From positions 32,001 to 96,000 of the IMG/VR virus record IMGVR_UViG_3300045988_140928: 64,000 bases of DNA, one strand, 5' to 3'. Below the pieces are notes generated by a model, which ran no database searches, was not told the origin of the DNA, and saw nothing but the letters and a program-made list of their open reading frames with translations. The position numbers and the translations under genes were made by a program. Positions 13,588 to 63,577 of the stretch are shown here, piece after piece; the stretch's first letter is position 1, and each line of letters starts with the position of its first letter. The stretch comes from a virus.

Positions 13588-14300
13588 TAACTATTCTCAC
13601 CTGCCTTATTGTATCTATCTATAATTTGTTCAATTGCCTGCTGTACAACTTTAGCGACCTCTTGTGCTTGTTGTTCATTTTCTGTTTCTTGATTAATTTT
13701 TGCATTCATACCCGATTTTGAGGTGACCCATGAATTAGGATCTGACTTATCTGAAACAGTACGGAATGATATATACTGTCCTCTTGTAGCTGAACTACCA
13801 AACCGTTCACGAGTAACGCTAGTAGACTTCCACTGATAAGCAATTGGACTACTATTAACTCCTCCAGCATTAGATAAAATCTTTTGAAACCTAGCTATAT
13901 TCTCATCTGCACTAGAAGTAGTACCAAACTCAGTATGACTAATTGTGTCCCATAGTCTACGACCAAAAGCTTGACGATATTCCGTTGCACGATTTGAAAT
14001 TGGTATTCTAATATACCAACCCCCATCTTTAGTAGGCTTAGCCTTAGGCGAACGAGCAAAAGCCTGTTTTAAATCATAAAACCCTACATTCTCATTATTA
14101 GCATCATTCAGAATTCGATAAGCCACAGACACACTAGATCCACTATCTCTAACTGCAAGATTACCAAAAGTCTTTTTTAATTCATTAGCTAAACCTTTAG
14201 TATAGGACTCAGTAATCTGCTTTTCGTCTATCTGCTTATTAAAGAAATCATGGAGACCTCTAATAGACTCATTACTAATTAAATCTGATATTTGAGCCAT
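13587..14300 (-). CDS. head-tail connector-type protein (unassigned)
   Basis: 237 aa. Blocks GGWYIRIPIS and YISFRTVSDKSDPNSW. Position between the capsid and sheath genes. Confidence 0.45.
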   Translation of the reverse strand: MAQISDLISNESIRGLHDFFNKQIDEKQITESYTKGLANELKKTFGNLAVRDSGSSVSVAYRILNDANNENVGFYDLKQAFARSPKAKPTKDGGWYIRIPISNRATEYRQAFGRRLWDTISHTEFGTTSSADENIARFQKILSNAGGVNSSPIAYQWKSTSVTRERFGSSATRGQYISFRTVSDKSDPNSWVTSKSGMNAKINQETENEQQAQEVAKVVQQAIEQIIDRYNKAGENS

Positions 14301-55115: not shown

Positions 55116-55769
55116 TTAATACCAACCATGTGATTGCCAGAATGATTGAGCATTAGCCCATGACCCATAGCGATTAGTAACGTATTGTTGAGCTACTCGT
55201 TCTTGGTTAGCTTCTGAATAGTCACCATTTAAGTAAGAAGCGTCTAATTGGTAACGTCCAATATAACGTCCATTAGTAGCTCCATAACTACCGCCAGACT
55301 CACGGTTAGCAATCCATTCTTTAGCTGATTGTTCTGAACCAGAAACAACTGGTGTAGCTGATTGACTTTGAGCTGGAGTAGTAGGTTGTTGTACAGGAGC
55401 TTGTGACTGTACTGGTTGAGTAGTTTGTACAGGTTGAGTATTAACAGTAGCTTGACTAGCTGGTTGAGCTTGGTTAGCTACTGGAGTTTGTACATTATTA
55501 GTAGTTGGTTGTTGCGCTTCTGGGGTAAGCACTAAAATATCACCAACGAAGATCTTGTTAGCATCGCTAAGTTGACTAGCAGATGCAATTGTTGATATAT
55601 CAGTTCCGTACTTGTTAGCGATGCTAGAAACAGTATCTCCAGCTTCTACACGTACATGAGTATCATCAATCTTAGTGTCAGCATTAGCTGTAGTAGCACC
55701 AAGTAAAGCACCAGCCATAACAGCACCGGCTAAAGCGAATTTAATATTGTTCTTCTTAGATAATAAAAT
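55116..55769 (-). CDS. secreted LysM plus lysozyme-like (Apf/transglycosylase-like) protein; probable AUU start
   Basis: The ORF-track Met falls inside a signal peptide. The frame extends to ATT 55769: (I)LLSKKNNIKFALAGAVMAGALLGATTANA. LysM motif VEAGDTVSSIANKYG. C-terminus AKEWIANRESGGSYGATNGRYIGRYQL. Confidence 0.6.
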   Translation of the reverse strand: MLLSKKNNIKFALAGAVMAGALLGATTANADTKIDDTHVRVEAGDTVSSIANKYGTDISTIASASQLSDANKIFVGDILVLTPEAQQPTTNNVQTPVANQAQPASQATVNTQPVQTTQPVQSQAPVQQPTTPAQSQSATPVVSGSEQSAKEWIANRESGGSYGATNGRYIGRYQLDASYLNGDYSEANQERVAQQYVTNRYGSWANAQSFWQSHGWY

Positions 55770-55945
55770 AAACCATCTATCCTTTCGTTTACATATGAAT
55801 TCTTTGTTTGTTCATATAAAATTCATATTTGATTACATCTTTACTATAGCACGCACCTATTACAGAACAACTACAGCAATGTTACAACAATATTACAGAA
55901 TTAAGGCAAAATAAAAAGACCTGTCAATTAGACAAGCCCTAATTC

Positions 55946-56281
55946 TTAATTATTATCTTTTGAACTGAGTAAACGTTTGAGGAATTCGATACTATCATCA
56001 TCTAAATCAATACCGTCAGAAGTAACTATTTCTAAGTCATCTTCATCTAATTCTTCATCAATATCATCGTCACTAGTAAGAATACCATTAATAATAGCAT
56101 TAGCTAATTCTTGAGGGTAACCATTAACTTCGCAAAGAGCGTCAACAGCTACACCAATTGAAAAGATGATGTCGTCAAAATTAACTCCATCCCAAGTATC
56201 ACCCATCTTTTCAATTAGGTCTTGGGCCATATCAATAGCATGTTCATAGTCTGCTTGTTGTTTCTTATTAAGTTCAGTCAT
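55946..56281 (-). CDS. acidic hypothetical protein
   Basis: Start MTELNKKQQ with GGAAAGGAAG SD. Confidence 0.45.
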   Translation of the reverse strand: MTELNKKQQADYEHAIDMAQDLIEKMGDTWDGVNFDDIIFSIGVAVDALCEVNGYPQELANAIINGILTSDDDIDEELDEDDLEIVTSDGIDLDDDSIEFLKRLLSSKDNN

Positions 56282-56343
56282 TATTATAACTTCCTTTCCT
56301 TTAATATGTTTCATATTTTAACTTCGATATTCTTGGAAGTCAA

Positions 56344-57126
56344 TTAGTTTTTACTTTTAATTGCTTCTTTTGCTAAATCCATTAGCTTTCGATCTGGAGT
56401 AGTGTAAACAAATAATACGTTAGGGAAATCTGCTAATCGTCTAACAATATCTTCTAATAAATCTGCATTTTTAACTTTTTGCCCATCAGTTTTAAGAAAT
56501 CCGTTTTTAATCCAAGTAGCTAACCAGCTTTTTCTAGTAAAGATATTAATTAGGTACTGATTATTAGTTCTTATCAAAATATGTTTTCTTTTATTTCCTT
56601 TATAATCTTTAAGAAAATAGTCTAAAGCTTTAAGAGCTAATCTAGGAGTATTATCCATTGTAACTTTAGCTAACGACCTATTATTTTTCTTATCCTTATT
56701 ATGATTAATTGAATATGCAAAAGCACCATAAGACTTATTAGGTTTATATCCTAACAAAGCAACATTACAAGTGATATTAGTAGGAATAGATTCTACTACC
56801 TTTAAAGGGGCGTAATTAATATGTTTTAAACTCTTTAATTTTTGAGGTTTATTTCTACGTTTATAGTTATGAATGAATATTCCAGCCTGTCTTTTAGATC
56901 TGAACTTCCTAAAGACTGGATCAGGATAATTTAGAATTTCTTTTTCACATCTGTTCCAATTATTGTAAATCCCAGTATGCCACCCTTTAGCAACTGCATA
57001 ATAGTAACCATTATTAGAGCTATAATTATACCCATAATTATTTCTTTTCCTTCTTTTACGCTTTTTATTATTTTTGGACTTACTGCCGGACTTTCTGAAA
57101 AAGATCTCGTCAACATAATTTGTCAT
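56344..57126 (-). CDS. RNase H1-like protein with N-terminal hybrid-binding domain and degenerate catalytic residues
   Basis: YYAVAKGWHTGIYNNWNRCEKEILNYPDPVFRKFRSKRQAGIFI is an HBD pattern. WLATWIKNGFLKTDGQKVKNADLLEDI aligns with the RNase HI basic protrusion. The D10, E48 and D70 equivalents read L, L and N. Confidence 0.6.
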   Translation of the reverse strand: MTNYVDEIFFRKSGSKSKNNKKRKRRKRNNYGYNYSSNNGYYYAVAKGWHTGIYNNWNRCEKEILNYPDPVFRKFRSKRQAGIFIHNYKRRNKPQKLKSLKHINYAPLKVVESIPTNITCNVALLGYKPNKSYGAFAYSINHNKDKKNNRSLAKVTMDNTPRLALKALDYFLKDYKGNKRKHILIRTNNQYLINIFTRKSWLATWIKNGFLKTDGQKVKNADLLEDIVRRLADFPNVLFVYTTPDRKLMDLAKEAIKSKN

Positions 57127-58200
57127 TATTACCACTCCTTATTCAAATTATCCATATGATAACTTCAAAAGTTGAAGAAGTAAATCACAAGTTCAATTAA
57201 TCGTCTCTTTTGACCTTTGTTAAATAATTCACAAGTACCTATAAAAATATAACTTATTATTTATTAGTAGTAAGCACTGAATCTATAACATTGAGCAATA
57301 TCTTATTTGTATTAAGACTAACTTTAGATAAGTAACTCTCCGTGTAATTTTAAACAATCTATTAATCTGAGTTAAATTATAACTTATTGTTACTTTTTTA
57401 CTGCTACTTAGATTATTCTTGGGGACGTACCTTTCCATCATAGGGAAAGGTAATTTCCCCAAACCCCTTTTGCCAAAGCTGTTAAATTCCAAGGAATTTA
57501 ATATTGTATATTTATTCTTAATTCTTATTTTTATACCTTAATTTTTTATTTCTTAAGTTAACATTATTTTTAATAATCTTAACTTAATTGATAAAGTAAT
57601 AATAAGGAATATGTTTAAATAAGATAATCTAAAGTATTGATATTAAGTAAGACTAGTAATACCTTTCCAGAGGGAGTGAGAGAAGAATATTTATCCCTGT
57701 TGGTTTAGAGACAAATATAAGTTAAATATTGCAAGTATATAATAAGACTACTAGTAAGTATATACTAATAGCTTTAATATACAATTACAGATAATCAACT
57801 TATGACGAAAAGGTAAACCTTTCCATCAGTCGGTCGGTCATCATTAATCAATTTATTGACTATAGCAAGTCAAGCTATAGTCATGCGCTAAGCTTTTTAC
57901 ATTCCTGTTGTCATCCCAAGAATGCTTTGTCAAACAATGTTACTTGTTTAACAGAGGTAATGAATAGCACTCCCACAACTTTAACCTCATACACTGCTAG
58001 GTACCCTAAAGCACTGGGTATCAGGATTTTTCTATCTTTTCACATTGGTTTTTAATCTATGTATGAGTAGACTCGTTTTATTAATTGACATTTACAACCG
58101 TGTGCTAACTACTACCATAAGGATGTGAATCTTTTAAATTCGAGCATCTGAACCTTATGCTTCATTCTCAAGTGTGTATGTAAATTTTAATACTGTTGAC

Positions 58201-58237
58201 TAAAAAGCTTAGCTAAGAAATGACTTAACTAAGCTTT
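58201..58237 (-). terminator. intrinsic terminator ending the candidate ncRNA
   Basis: Minus strand AAAGCTTAG-16 nt-CTAAGCTTT followed by TT. No T run follows on the plus strand. Confidence 0.45.
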
Positions 58238-58878
58238 AAAGCACGAAATGATGTTCAATATCTCAATTAACAATTCTGCAATCTCAACAGAAGCTAACAA
58301 ATCAACCTCCAGACCGTTGGGTCGTGGCGTCATCCCACTCCAACACTACACGGCGAATCTGTCGCCAGATCCTTTTCCAGACCAGATTAATTTTGGTCCC
58401 CTCTTTGTAGCGAGTTCCCTCTGTGATATAAAGTGTGGTAAGGGCTACACCTAGTTGATAATTAACACCGGGATCTCACAACGACAATAGTGCTTATTGC
58501 CCCAGCTTGCCCCCTCTGCAAATCCACCTTCGTGAGGTTTCATCTTGTGGTGTCTTGTCTTATCGAGGACGGTTAGTAACATCTACTATACACCCCCGTG
58601 GAAAAGCTCTCCATGCCCTTTTCTCATTAGGCTGGCTTATGCTCCAATTTATATTTGTTTTTGGACTGATTTATTAGATCAATCAATAAACCGCCCTTAT
58701 ATTCAATAAAGAAATTTCAAGCGGATTGCTACTTGACTATCTTGTCTGGGAAACTTGATAGTCAAGCAACAACAATTGTCTTCTTGTTTAAGCTGTCCTA
58801 TTTCAGTCTAGGTGTATCCCGTTCCTATTTTAGGAAATAAGATTGAATCTTATTAAGACAAAGCTGTCATTTGCAGAC
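58201..58878 (-). ncRNA. candidate large structured ncRNA (about 680 nt), class unknown
   Basis: No ORF of 60 aa or more on this strand. The extended -10 promoter at 58885-58893 and the terminator at 58201-58237 bracket it. Two 60-nt lines at 58301-58420 are 34/60 and 29/60 G+C by hand count, against 7/60 at 57541-57600. The minus strand is G-rich. It has many local hairpins, e.g. a 10-bp stem at 58742-58776. Confidence 0.45.
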
Positions 58879-58884
58879 AAATAG

Positions 58885-58893
58885 ATTATATCA
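58885..58893 (-). promoter_or_regulatory. extended -10 promoter element (TGaTATAAT)
   Basis: Minus strand ATGATATAAT. The -35 is weak. Confidence 0.4.
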
Positions 58894-59024
58894 TACTTTT
58901 ATCTACTAAAACCGTTTTGTAGTGAAAAAAAAATAAAAATTTCTTGCTATAAAATCAGCATTTGGGATTGAGTTTAGAGTTATAATTAAGTTATTAAATC
59001 TGAACAACGAAAAGGGAATAATTA

Positions 59025-59285
59025 ATGTATCATGCAATTATCTTTCATACGCCTAATTGTATGAAGTGTAAATTAACGGAGAAACAACTGTCCCAGTTGA
59101 TGCCAACAAAGATGATTTTAATTGATCGTTTGGCTGAAACTCGGATGGATATTATCAGTTACATGGAAAGTCACGGAATGGCTTCATCGCCTTTGGTTAG
59201 AATTTATCAAGGAAATAAGATGGTGGACGAATGGAATGACTTTCAAGTATCAAAAATTAAACAGTGGAAAGGCAGAGTTGGTTAA
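59025..59285 (+). CDS. nrdH: NrdH/glutaredoxin-like redoxin
   Basis: 86 aa, IIFHTPNCMKCKLTEKQL (CxxC after beta1), small thioredoxin-fold size. Confidence 0.6.
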   Translation: MYHAIIFHTPNCMKCKLTEKQLSQLMPTKMILIDRLAETRMDIISYMESHGMASSPLVRIYQGNKMVDEWNDFQVSKIKQWKGRVG

Positions 59286-59347
59286 TCAAGACTTATTATG
59301 TAAAACTGTATTACCTGTTCAAATACATTGGCTATTCTAATTATGAA

Positions 59348-61762: not shown

Positions 61763-62932
61763 ATGCTAAAGGGAGTAAAATTACGTTTATATCCTAATGC
61801 TAAACAATGTGATCAACTGTTACAGATGTTTGGTAACAGTCGTTTTATCTGGAACATTATGTTAAACATGGCTAATGAACGTTATAAGAATAATCCTAGT
61901 TCTTCTTTTGTTGGTGAATATGATATGAATTATCTACTAAAGCGACTAAAAATTGAGTACCCCTTTTTGAAAGAAAGTGAGGCTAGAAGTTTACAAATAT
62001 CTAATCATTACTTAAACCAATCCTTTAAGATGTTATTTAAACACCAAGGTGGCTATCCTAGGTTTAAAAGTCGTAAAGCTACTAAACAATCTTATACTGG
62101 TGATGGTAGTCGTGGCGGTTGTCATATTATAGCTAAACGTTATATGAGACTACCTAAACTAGGCTCAATTAAAACTAGTAAAACAGGTAGGTTAGAAGGA
62201 TTAAAGATTAAAAGATATACAGTTACCTTAGATCCTACTGGTAGGTATTACTTGTCTTTAATTGTAGATGATCCTAATATCCAGCTACTAGAAAAGACTG
62301 GAGCAGTAGTAGGAATAGATATGGGAGTAGCAGACTTAGCTATTACTAGTGATGGTTATAAATACCCTAAGTTTGAAGCTAATTGGTATGAACAACAAGC
62401 TAATAAAGCTCAATCACGCTTTTCTAAGCGTAGACATAGAGCTTTAGTTGGGGTAAGACAATGGAACCATAATCATAAAGATATTAAGATGGAATTAGAA
62501 GATTATTCTAATTGGCAAAAAGCTAGGATTTCTAAGTCTCGTTATCAAGCTAAGATAGCTAATAAGCGTAAGGATTACTTACATAAGATAACAACTGAAT
62601 TAGTAAAGAGCTATGATGTGATTGTAATAGAAGATTTGAAAACCAAGAATCTTCTTAAAAATCATCATCTAGCTAAATCAATTTCTAATAATAGTTGGTA
62701 CTTATTTAGAGAAATGTTGGAGTATAAGTGTGAATGGTATGGTAAGAAACTTATTAAAGTAAGTCCAAACTATACTTCACAAATATGTTCTAATTGTGGT
62801 TATCATTCAGGCAAGAAACCATTAAATGTACGTGAATGGACTTGTCCTAAGTGTAATACATATCATGATCGAGATATTAATGCTTCAATTAACATTCTAA
62901 ATAGGGGATTAAAGGAATTAAATATAAATTGA
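61763..62932 (+). mobile_element. tnpB: TnpB (IS200/IS605-family OrfB, RNA-guided nuclease type), solo copy
   Basis: N-terminus KLRLYPNAKQCDQLLQMFGNSRFIWN. RuvC candidates VVGIDMGV, VIVIEDLK and YHDRDINASINI. Zinc ribbon CSNCG...CPKCN. No tnpA in the window. Confidence 0.85.
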
Positions 62933-63092: not shown

Positions 63093-63158
63093 GGTCTAAT
63101 TGGCTATGACGCACGGTTGTCTCCCGTGAGATTGAGAGTTCGAGTCTCTCTAGGACCG
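63093..63158 (+). other. tRNA-like element i (Asp-GTC-like anticodon arm, truncated D region)
   Basis: GGTCTAA TTGGCTATGACG CACGG-TTGTCTC-CCGTG AGATT GAGAG-TTCGAGT-CTCTC TAGGACC G. Only 12 nt where about 19 are expected. Confidence 0.4.
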
Positions 63159-63518: not shown

Positions 63519-63577
63519 AGGGTAGTAGTTCAATGGTAGATCATGCAAGGACGGGGGTTCGATTCCTTCCTACCCTA
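63519..63577 (+). other. tRNA-like element iii (acceptor, D arm and T arm but no anticodon arm)
   Basis: AGGGTAG TA GTTC-AATGGTA-GATC ATGCAAGGAC GGGGG-TTCGATT-CCTTC CTACCCT A. 58 nt plus discriminator. Confidence 0.4.

Follow-up and report, generated by a model that had tools for sequence, protein, structure and literature searches.

The locus and its gene-free island

The window analysed here is a stretch of 64,000 nucleotides (nt; positions 32,001-96,000 of the record IMGVR_UViG_3300045988_140928; all coordinates below are within this window), which looks like part of a large, lytic, uncultured Herelleviridae-like myophage of the Lactobacillales type. Its minus-strand genes span about 57 kb (long open reading frames, ORFs; lysis-type genes; two transfer RNAs, tRNAs) and end at 57135, and its plus-strand genes start at 59025. 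The subject of this report is the coding desert in between (57135-59025), whose longest ORF is 69 aa (57283-57492, minus strand). From the letters alone, an original prediction had placed there, at 58201-58893, a large structured RNA of about 680 nt, read from the minus strand between an extended -10 promoter and a terminator. The core of this observation is confirmed, and every literal statement made with it checks out. On comparison with related phages, the stretch is a real, unusual conserved non-coding element; it is probably an RNA, and is best read as one phage non-coding RNA gene or a small group of them, new and of narrow distribution, which would be transcribed from a conserved minus-strand promoter (Table 1). 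Its extent is larger than originally thought, and its core is not demonstrably ornate.

The island has an unusual base composition. Between 58250 and 58660 it contains 45.3% G+C versus 34.9% for the window overall, i.e. about 2.5 standard deviations (sd; 4.2% for 400-nt windows of the window) above it, with the caveat that the coding stretches at 47.5-48 kb and 51.3 kb exceed the island in G+C. The two line counts made by hand are exact (34 of 60 at 58300-58359; 29 of 60 at 58360-58419), and the reported strand asymmetry is found as well, the plus strand of 58250-58660 counting 111 C versus 75 G, which makes the minus strand G-rich. The extended -10 motif is present (ATTATATCAT at 58886-58895, that is ATGATATAAT on the minus strand; TGATATAAT at 58893-58885), and so is the terminator-like hairpin (AAAGCUUAGUUAAG-UCAUUU-CUUAGCUAAGCUUU followed by UU, 58237-58202), which has a 14-bp stem and also appears as the inverted repeat I25. 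The stem of this hairpin (58242-58199 in full) is A/U-rich, and three U's of its U run pair with an upstream A run.

Table 1. Features of the coding desert and of the two genes that border it (coordinates within the window)
Feature	Coordinates	Strand	Remarks
RNase H-like gene, 263 aa	56344..57135	-	Downstream, in the same cassette; hybrid/dsRNA-binding domain intact, catalytic residues lost
Second strongly folded, highly conserved minus-sense element	57650..57900	-	Four hairpins; outside the interval of the original prediction
Middle non-coding segment	57900..58198	-	Covarying helices 58185-58176/58099-58090, 58159-58153/58122-58116 and 58061-58041
Terminal hairpin	58199..58242	-	14-17 bp, U5 run; intrinsic-terminator-like or 3'-end hairpin; seen in the fold
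G-rich core	58250..58600	-	Nearly invariant; GNRA-capped hairpin 58355-58372, hairpin 58380-58398, G5-N6-G4 at 58514-58500
5' domain of local hairpins	58600..58879	-	Hairpins 58838-58852 and 58822-58836, long hairpin 58728-58770
Extended -10 promoter (candidate), TGATATAAT	58885..58893	-	Block AAAGTRTGATATAMT and upstream T-rich tract common to all three cassette types
Thioredoxin/NrdH-like small gene	59025..59285	+	Divergent from the desert; served as anchor for finding relatives

Three cassette types in related phages

Using as anchors the NrdH-like protein (in IMG/VR, metagenomes, and the ENA and Logan assemblies) and then the close homologues of the RNase H-like protein (in ENA and Logan), we recovered about 20 loci from uncultured phages. 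The flanks of these loci align at 80-92%, and the interval from about 56371 to 58883-58887 exists in three versions: type A (L001, L003-L006), type B (L002, L007, L015-L019) and type C. The latter comprises the window, L008 and L009 (99% identity), L030 (92%), L028 and L029 (91.5%), and L026 and L027 (90%), which provide five distinct sequences at 90-99% identity for the type C comparison. Across the types, the sequences diverge immediately downstream of the -10 motif, 58883-58887 being the exact point from which the DNA is again homologous to that of the type A and B phages. All three types share the promoter block, and in each of them it leads straight into an ORF-free island of 0.42-0.48 G+C. 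Position and strand are likewise shared, and the islands are shorter in types A and B (about 450-520 nt).

Types A and B are homologous, as seen from the common blocks AACCGACA...UAGUCGGU, GCUAAAAC, GGACCNAGGGU and GGUUAAANAUGGA, and they differ by three compensatory pairs in one hairpin (CUCAGGGA/UCCCUGAG against CUUAGGUG/CACCUAAG). A column-based helix search on their alignment is unreliable, MAFFT misaligning the variable parts, and within either type the islands carry too few substitutions to judge covariation. Homology of type C to types A and B was considered and rejected: the k-mers they share are not above the level of shuffled sequences, and nhmmer profile searches found nothing in either direction. 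Beyond these loci, neither the desert nor the islands of types A and B had a match among 50,697 phage records (blastn, word size 11); an exact 22-mer of the core is absent from IMG/VR and has a single match in the GTDB genomes, a chance hit without extension in a Sphingobium metagenome-assembled genome; and the A/B motif pattern occurs in only five IMG/VR contigs, all among the loci already recovered. As far as exact and profile searches reach, the element thus appears confined to one group of uncultured phages.

Conservation of the island and its coding potential

The island is the most conserved stretch of the locus, and the same contrast is seen in the type A and type B loci. Among the five type C variants, 10 of the 350 columns of the core (58250-58600) are variable (2.9%), as compared with 7.7% in the whole 58200-58880 interval, about 3% at 57650-57850, 11% in the middle segment, 22% in the RNase H-like coding sequence and about 18% at the start of the NrdH-like one. 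By this comparison, purifying selection on the island is stronger than on the flanking coding sequence. The original prediction had proposed a comparison with related phages as its own check, and this comparison reveals strong conservation together with some compensatory changes. It is because of this conservation and of the substitution pattern in the relatives, and not because of the motifs themselves, that the finding stands above chance.

Several lines of evidence indicate that the conserved stretch does not encode a protein. First, the minus strand carries no ORF of at least 60 aa inside the interval, as had been stated (the longest is 43 aa), and no gene was called in the desert on seven related contigs. 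Second, the six-frame translations matched nothing in Pfam and PHROGs. Third, the codon score is -0.16 to -0.25 versus 0.41 ± 0.17 for real genes. Fourth, the alignment of types A and B contains 2-nt, frame-breaking gaps inside conserved blocks. The possibility of a decayed protein gene was rejected, on the empty Pfam and PHROGs searches in six frames and the low codon scores.

These data also bear on the proposal that the element is not an RNA gene at all, i.e. that it is a small protein gene, a protein-bound DNA site, or a recently spread cassette that mimics purifying selection. Three observations speak for it: a plus-strand ORF of 68 aa in the core (58248-58454) is intact in all five variants, with four synonymous and three non-synonymous events; the core has no folding signal; and L008 is identical to the window over 57327-58664 with different flanks, which is compatible with a recent exchange. 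Against it, the 68-aa ORF has no Shine-Dalgarno sequence, a codon score 3.4 sd below that of real genes and no similarity in Pfam or PHROGs, it was never called as a gene on the related contigs, and it has no equivalent in types A and B, of which the conserved blocks hold the frame-breaking gaps. A recent spread of the cassette cannot alone explain the frozen island, because the RNase H-like protein of the same cassette has diverged to 83-92% identity; hitch-hiking alone is thus insufficient for a near-invariant island. Finally, the compensatory and G.U-compatible changes described below are strand-specific. We regard this proposal as the least probable of those considered here.

Folding and base-pair changes

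Folding was scored as z against dinucleotide shuffles. The whole interval has a z of -5.9 (run of 20 shuffles) or -4.6 (run of 60 shuffles) on the minus strand and about -3 on the plus strand, and background 350-nt windows of the same phage have a mean z of -0.8 (sd 1.4, minimum -4.7). This signal derives from the 5' domain (58600-58880) and the terminal hairpin, and not from the G+C core: the 5' domain has a z of -4.0 on the minus strand and -1.5 on the plus strand, and its 200-nt windows reach -5.0 to -5.5 on the minus strand. The five hairpins originally named all exist in the sequence, and the description of the interval as packed with hairpins is not demonstrable for the conserved G+C core, with a z near 0. 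One of the five, GGCGA/TCGCC, is probably not the real hairpin, as the overlapping and competing GGAUCUG-GCGA-CAGAUUC, with its GNRA loop, has a G-C to A-U exchange.

The substitutions among the type C variants point to selection on RNA pairing at several places, in that several helices are preserved by changes compatible with pairing in the minus-sense RNA only. In the hairpin 58728-58770 pairing is kept through a change from G-C to G.U to A-U and another from C-G to U.G, with a z of about -8 in both variants. The hairpin 58355-58372 shows, besides the compensatory G-C to A-U exchange, a change of the neighbouring G.U to A-U, and folds in both variants. The terminal hairpin varies at six pairs, one of them by a G-C to C-G exchange, and pairing is retained at each. 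Not all candidate helices passed this comparison: in the long-range helix 58808-58825/58437-58454, the substitutions weaken the pairing instead of compensating, and this helix was rejected.

A perfect 13-nt inverted repeat (57887-57899/58201-58213, GCTAAGCTTTTTA/TAAAAAGCTTAGC) duplicates an arm of the terminal hairpin 301 nt away. It was rejected as a conserved long-range helix: conservation of its pairing is unsupported, because one pair is broken by a substitution in L028 and L026.

The RNA was originally supposed to end at 58201. The minus-sense constraint does not stop there and runs on to about 57650. The element at 57650-57900, which may belong to the same RNA or form one of its own, has a folding z (57650-57860) of -7.8 on the minus strand versus -0.4 on the plus strand, and 7 of the 8 variable pairs of 57640-57900 are kept on the minus sense, all by G.U-compatible transitions, versus 0 of 8 on the plus sense. 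The middle segment (57900-58198) folds with a z of only -1.3. In the RNAalifold structure of 58885-57640, eight pairs have double-sided changes, as compared with 3.5 ± 1.2 in shuffles (0 of 500 shuffles reach eight) and 0-2 in slid controls, the structure having been built on the same five-sequence alignment, which favours it. Four of these eight pairs lie at 58185-58041, downstream of the supposed terminator. As the constraint continues past this terminator to about 57650, the unit may be at least 1.25 kb long, or may consist of several RNAs.

Two side observations concern this distal part of the desert. In type B, a long stretch able to form hairpins (L002 5030-5229, minus strand; z of -6.1 on the minus strand and -3.3 on the plus strand) lies in the A/T-rich part of the desert and resembles the long A/U hairpin 57719-57801 of the window. 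The motif ACCTTTCCA, UGGAAAGGU in the minus sense, has three copies in the 64-kb window (0.8 expected), all in the desert (57429-57437, 57661-57669 and 57817-57825); these copies are conserved in the type C relatives, and two of them follow AUG.

The extension of the constraint raises the alternative of a long, structured, cis-acting 5' leader. According to this explanation, a leftward operon (genes for the RNase H-like, acidic and LysM proteins, tRNAs and endolysin) would begin with the entire desert as an untranslated head of 1.75 kb, of which the hairpins, including the terminator-like one at 58242-58199, would control read-through, timing or mRNA stability. The put RNA of phage HK022 and other processive-antitermination leaders work in this general way. 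Besides the constraint past the terminal hairpin to 57650, a leader is suggested by the co-orientation of all downstream genes, by a consensus scan that found no strong promoter on the minus strand between 58585 and 57375, and by the joint exchange of the island and the RNase H-like gene or genes in a single cassette, one border of which is the promoter. However, 1.75 kb would be an exceptional length for a leader, and its most conserved part would be the furthest from the first gene. Moreover, the RNase H-like gene is preceded by a plausible promoter of its own (TTTACT-17-TATCAT, 57184-57156) and a Shine-Dalgarno sequence, and the stretch between the structured RNA and this gene (57200-57400 and 57550-57600) varies more than any other part of the locus and has indels. 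On balance a leader is unlikely, though we take it more seriously than the other alternatives considered here.

RNase H-fold genes and other neighbours

RNase H-fold genes follow the island on the same strand in all three cassette types. The 263-aa protein of the window matches the Pfam family Cauli_VI (RNase H1 N-terminal domain, 1.6e-13) and has no RNase_H match. Its alignment with E. coli RnhA shows the replacements D10 to L, E48 to A and D70 to N, and these comparisons suggest that this RNase H copy is catalytically dead and keeps the hybrid/dsRNA-binding domain. Type B (L002 2770-4802) has three RNase H-fold copies: one active-looking, one partial, and one dead which, like that of the window, has lost the catalytic residues and kept the RNase H1 N-terminal binding domain. 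In type A (L004 3818-4921), an active-looking RNase H without the binding domain carries a 200-aa N-terminal extension of unknown type.

Another alternative is a replication-origin transcript. The G-rich RNA, transcribed from the conserved promoter, would form a persistent R-loop on the C-rich template, and the RNase H-fold proteins would bind or process the hybrid, thereby priming leading-strand synthesis. Such R-loop priming is used by ColE1 RNA II, a primer transcript made from a constitutive promoter, by oriF and oriG of phage T4, and by mitochondrial DNA. Several features fit with it. First, the RNA would be G-rich (111 G and 75 C in the core), with G clusters such as G5-N6-G4 at 58514-58500, and conservation of the core is at the level of sequence, with no folding signal. 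Second, RNase H-fold genes, with or without a hybrid-binding domain, always adjoin the island. Third, the region lies at a switch of gene orientation and at the minimum of the cumulative GC skew, next to an A/T-rich, indel-prone stretch (57200-57650). Fourth, the size of about 680 nt is near that of ColE1 RNA II (about 550 nt). Other features argue against this view. The G content is only 27%, far under that of typical R-loop extension zones, and gene orientation accounts equally well for the GC-skew switch. The unit ends in a hairpin and a U run, which are absent from ColE1-type primers, and searches of the desert revealed no iterons, no tandem repeats and no excess or cluster of DnaA boxes, i.e. 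no origin of the iteron/DnaA type. The substitutions indicate that selection acts on RNA hairpins, with G.U pairs among those kept, rather than on duplex DNA. Finally, RNase H is not sequence-specific, and therefore its joint exchange with the RNA is not obviously required. An origin transcript appears to us improbable, somewhat more so than a leader.

Further along the minus strand, the island and the RNase H-like gene are followed by small genes, a LysM protein gene, tRNA-Met and tRNA-Arg (54131-53844, 4 kb downstream of the island and on the same strand) and a 432-aa ORF, whose counterpart on related contigs matches Glyco_hydro_25 and LysM. The window has weak DNA matches in Enterococcus phages and in the Lactobacillus phages LP65 and Lb338-1. 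Among cultured phages, the NrdH-like protein has its nearest homologues in Herelleviridae phages of Levilactobacillus brevis; in Tybeckvirus and Watanabevirus, the nearest cultured phages with such a homologue, the gene context is different and there is no desert.

On the plus strand, two Rfam tRNA matches of 58 and 59 nt (63093-63150 and 63519-63577) lie in a patch of 0.43-0.46 G+C. ARAGORN calls neither, and the second one lacks the anticodon arm (a gap of 13 model positions). Both could be remnants of tRNAs or elements that resemble tRNAs. The 389-aa ORF at 61763-62932 (plus strand) has counterparts on related contigs that match the OrfB_IS605 and Cas12f-like TnpB Pfam families, and its 3' part matches genes annotated 'transposase' in the Lactobacillus phages LP65, Lb338-1 and Lbab1.

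Proposed function of the element

Together, these data support strong purifying selection on a minus-strand element that does not code for protein and in which some pair changes are compensatory, and we propose the following scenario, to which we give an even chance: a non-coding minus-strand unit would produce a stable, trans-acting RNA, of which the likeliest partner is the adjacent RNase H-like protein. The interval of the original prediction would be the promoter-proximal two thirds of this transcription unit. Host RNA polymerase would start at about 58879, as the position of the -10 motif suggests, and the resulting RNA of about 677 nt would comprise a hairpin-rich 5' domain, the invariant G-rich core, and the terminal hairpin with its U run (58242-58203); some transcripts would read through further structured RNA to about 57650. 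The stable RNA would act in trans through its invariant core, the presumed binding surface; this core would be scaffolded, and the ends of the RNA protected, by the flanking helices. The likeliest partner would be the product of the next gene in the same swappable cassette, the dead RNase H homologue with its domain for binding dsRNA or RNA-DNA hybrids, and the RNA-protein pair would act early in infection, in replication or host takeover.

A bolder version assumes that Lactobacillales myophages have interchangeable cassettes that each combine an RNA with RNase H-fold genes. The invariant G-rich core would adopt a tertiary or multimeric fold, an architecture that would be invisible to nearest-neighbour folding, and the RNA would form a ribonucleoprotein with the dead RNase H and its binding domain, which would either hold an R-loop that starts phage replication or serve as a decoy for a host defence that senses nucleic acids; types A/B and type C would then be independent or hyper-diverged solutions. 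We consider this version a speculation with little probability.

A number of points weigh against the proposed trans-acting RNA. First, the core has no folding advantage (58250-58600: z of +0.4 on the minus strand and -0.7 on the plus strand; 58240-58620: z of 0.06), it holds only one of the eight pairs with double-sided changes, and it contains the intact 68-aa ORF mentioned above. Second, the five type C sequences are few, the structure that was tested for double-sided changes was derived from their own alignment, and the interval 58885-58195 taken alone discriminates poorly between the strands (of the variable pairs, 12 survive and 10 are lost in the minus sense, versus 9 and 9 in the plus sense). 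Third, we infer the promoter, the start site and the terminator from motifs: TGNTATAAT occurs at chance frequency (7 copies in the window versus 7.4 expected), and the consensus scan listed neither the TGATATAAT promoter nor the 58242-58199 terminator. Fourth, the folding of the type B island does not exceed chance (z of -1.1). Fifth, it is only their adjacency that suggests a partnership between the RNA and the protein, and a dead binder is not universal, because the type A RNase H is active-looking and has no binding domain.

With regard to significance, bacterial and phage RNAs of more than 500 nt without a known function are rare, and GOLLD, ROOL, OLE and raiA proved structurally remarkable; the present locus adds a candidate RNA that no catalogue holds. 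Three of its properties are unusual: a non-coding core whose conservation exceeds that of the adjacent genes; the existence in sister phages of at least two alternatives that look unrelated and lie at the same promoter; and a consistent link to RNase H-fold genes, including a dead enzyme with only its nucleic-acid-binding domain left. These claims rest on the sequence comparison of a few metagenomic contigs, and the element remains a candidate.

Comparison with known RNAs and systems

We scanned the whole window with the Rfam 15 models (cmscan) at the gathering score, and the regions 55500-59300 (3.8 kb) and 58150-58920 (771 nt) at E ≤ 10. The first scan found tRNAs only, and the best matches of the others were to unrelated families, with E values of 0.07 to 6.7 and far below the gathering scores. 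The original prediction had left open whether the RNA belongs to GOLLD or ROOL or to a new class. Membership is not supported, neither family giving a covariance-model match on either strand even at E ≤ 10, and what stands is that the element matches no Rfam 15 family; OLE, raiA and HEARO, the other families named for such a scan, gave no match. As the scans gave no match in the window, introns, RNase P, transfer-messenger RNA (tmRNA), 6S RNA, riboswitches and ribozymes were rejected, and known families are excluded as far as the models can see. The type A and B islands matched no Rfam family in three scans, ARAGORN found no tRNA or tmRNA in the desert, and the search for antisense targets within the window revealed no complementarity beyond 14-16 nt.

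The element resembles the primers of the ColE1 RNA II type in being several hundred nt long, G-rich and partly structured, in its presumed transcription from a constitutive promoter, and in having an RNase H-fold protein involved or adjacent. It differs from them in the terminator-like hairpin at its 3' end, in its moderate G content and in the dead state of the adjacent RNase H homologue, and no antisense regulator of the ColE1 kind was found at the window locus.

The closest parallel in position is phage K, a member of the Herelleviridae, which produces two abundant early long non-coding RNAs (lncRNAs) of unknown function, lnc001 (635 nt) and lnc002 (1154 nt), located upstream of tRNA and lysis genes (PMC9241854), and lnc002 has its own early promoter (PMC9241854). 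The two phages are of the same or closely related families. As in the window, lnc002 occupies an ORF-free interval which lies upstream of, and is co-oriented with, tRNA genes and the lysis module (gene order in phage K: gp191, lnc002, three tRNAs, holin, endolysin), and the sizes of 635 and 1154 nt compare with about 680 to at least 1250 nt here. The phage K lncRNAs were seen by RNA-seq, whereas the window element is known from its sequence alone. Unlike the island, the phage K regions have no marked G+C elevation (0.27-0.36) and no annotated RNase H-like neighbour, and blastn (word size 7) with phage K 37679-38832 and 13595-14229 gave only chance matches of at most 22 nt. Since the position of the present element matches that of these early lncRNAs of a therapeutic phage, its function could explain a wider feature of the Herelleviridae. 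As a side observation, the lnc001 region of phage K (L025 2133-2269; record 13632-13768, minus strand) scores just below the gathering threshold for the DUF3800-I RNA (43.4 versus 44.2 bits, E 5e-4), and part of lnc001 may thus belong to this known motif.

GOLLD and ROOL are non-coding RNAs of about 580-800 nt from Lactobacillales and their phages, often near tRNA genes and without a known function (PMC5737381, PMC12286853). The window element shares with them the size of a large non-coding RNA, the Lactobacillales phage background and the tRNA genes 4 kb downstream. Unlike them, it has a core with no predicted folding advantage, and it occurs very narrowly, in just a handful of phage contigs from metagenomes. 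Multistem junctions or pseudoknots are not evident from the five near-identical sequences. The type A and B islands, although shorter and without a detectable sequence relation to the window element, have the same promoter, position and strand, a similar G+C content and no ORF, are likewise the most conserved part of their loci, and lie next to RNase H-fold genes. By analogy with what has been suggested for GOLLD and ROOL, types A/B and type C might be separate solutions to the same task.

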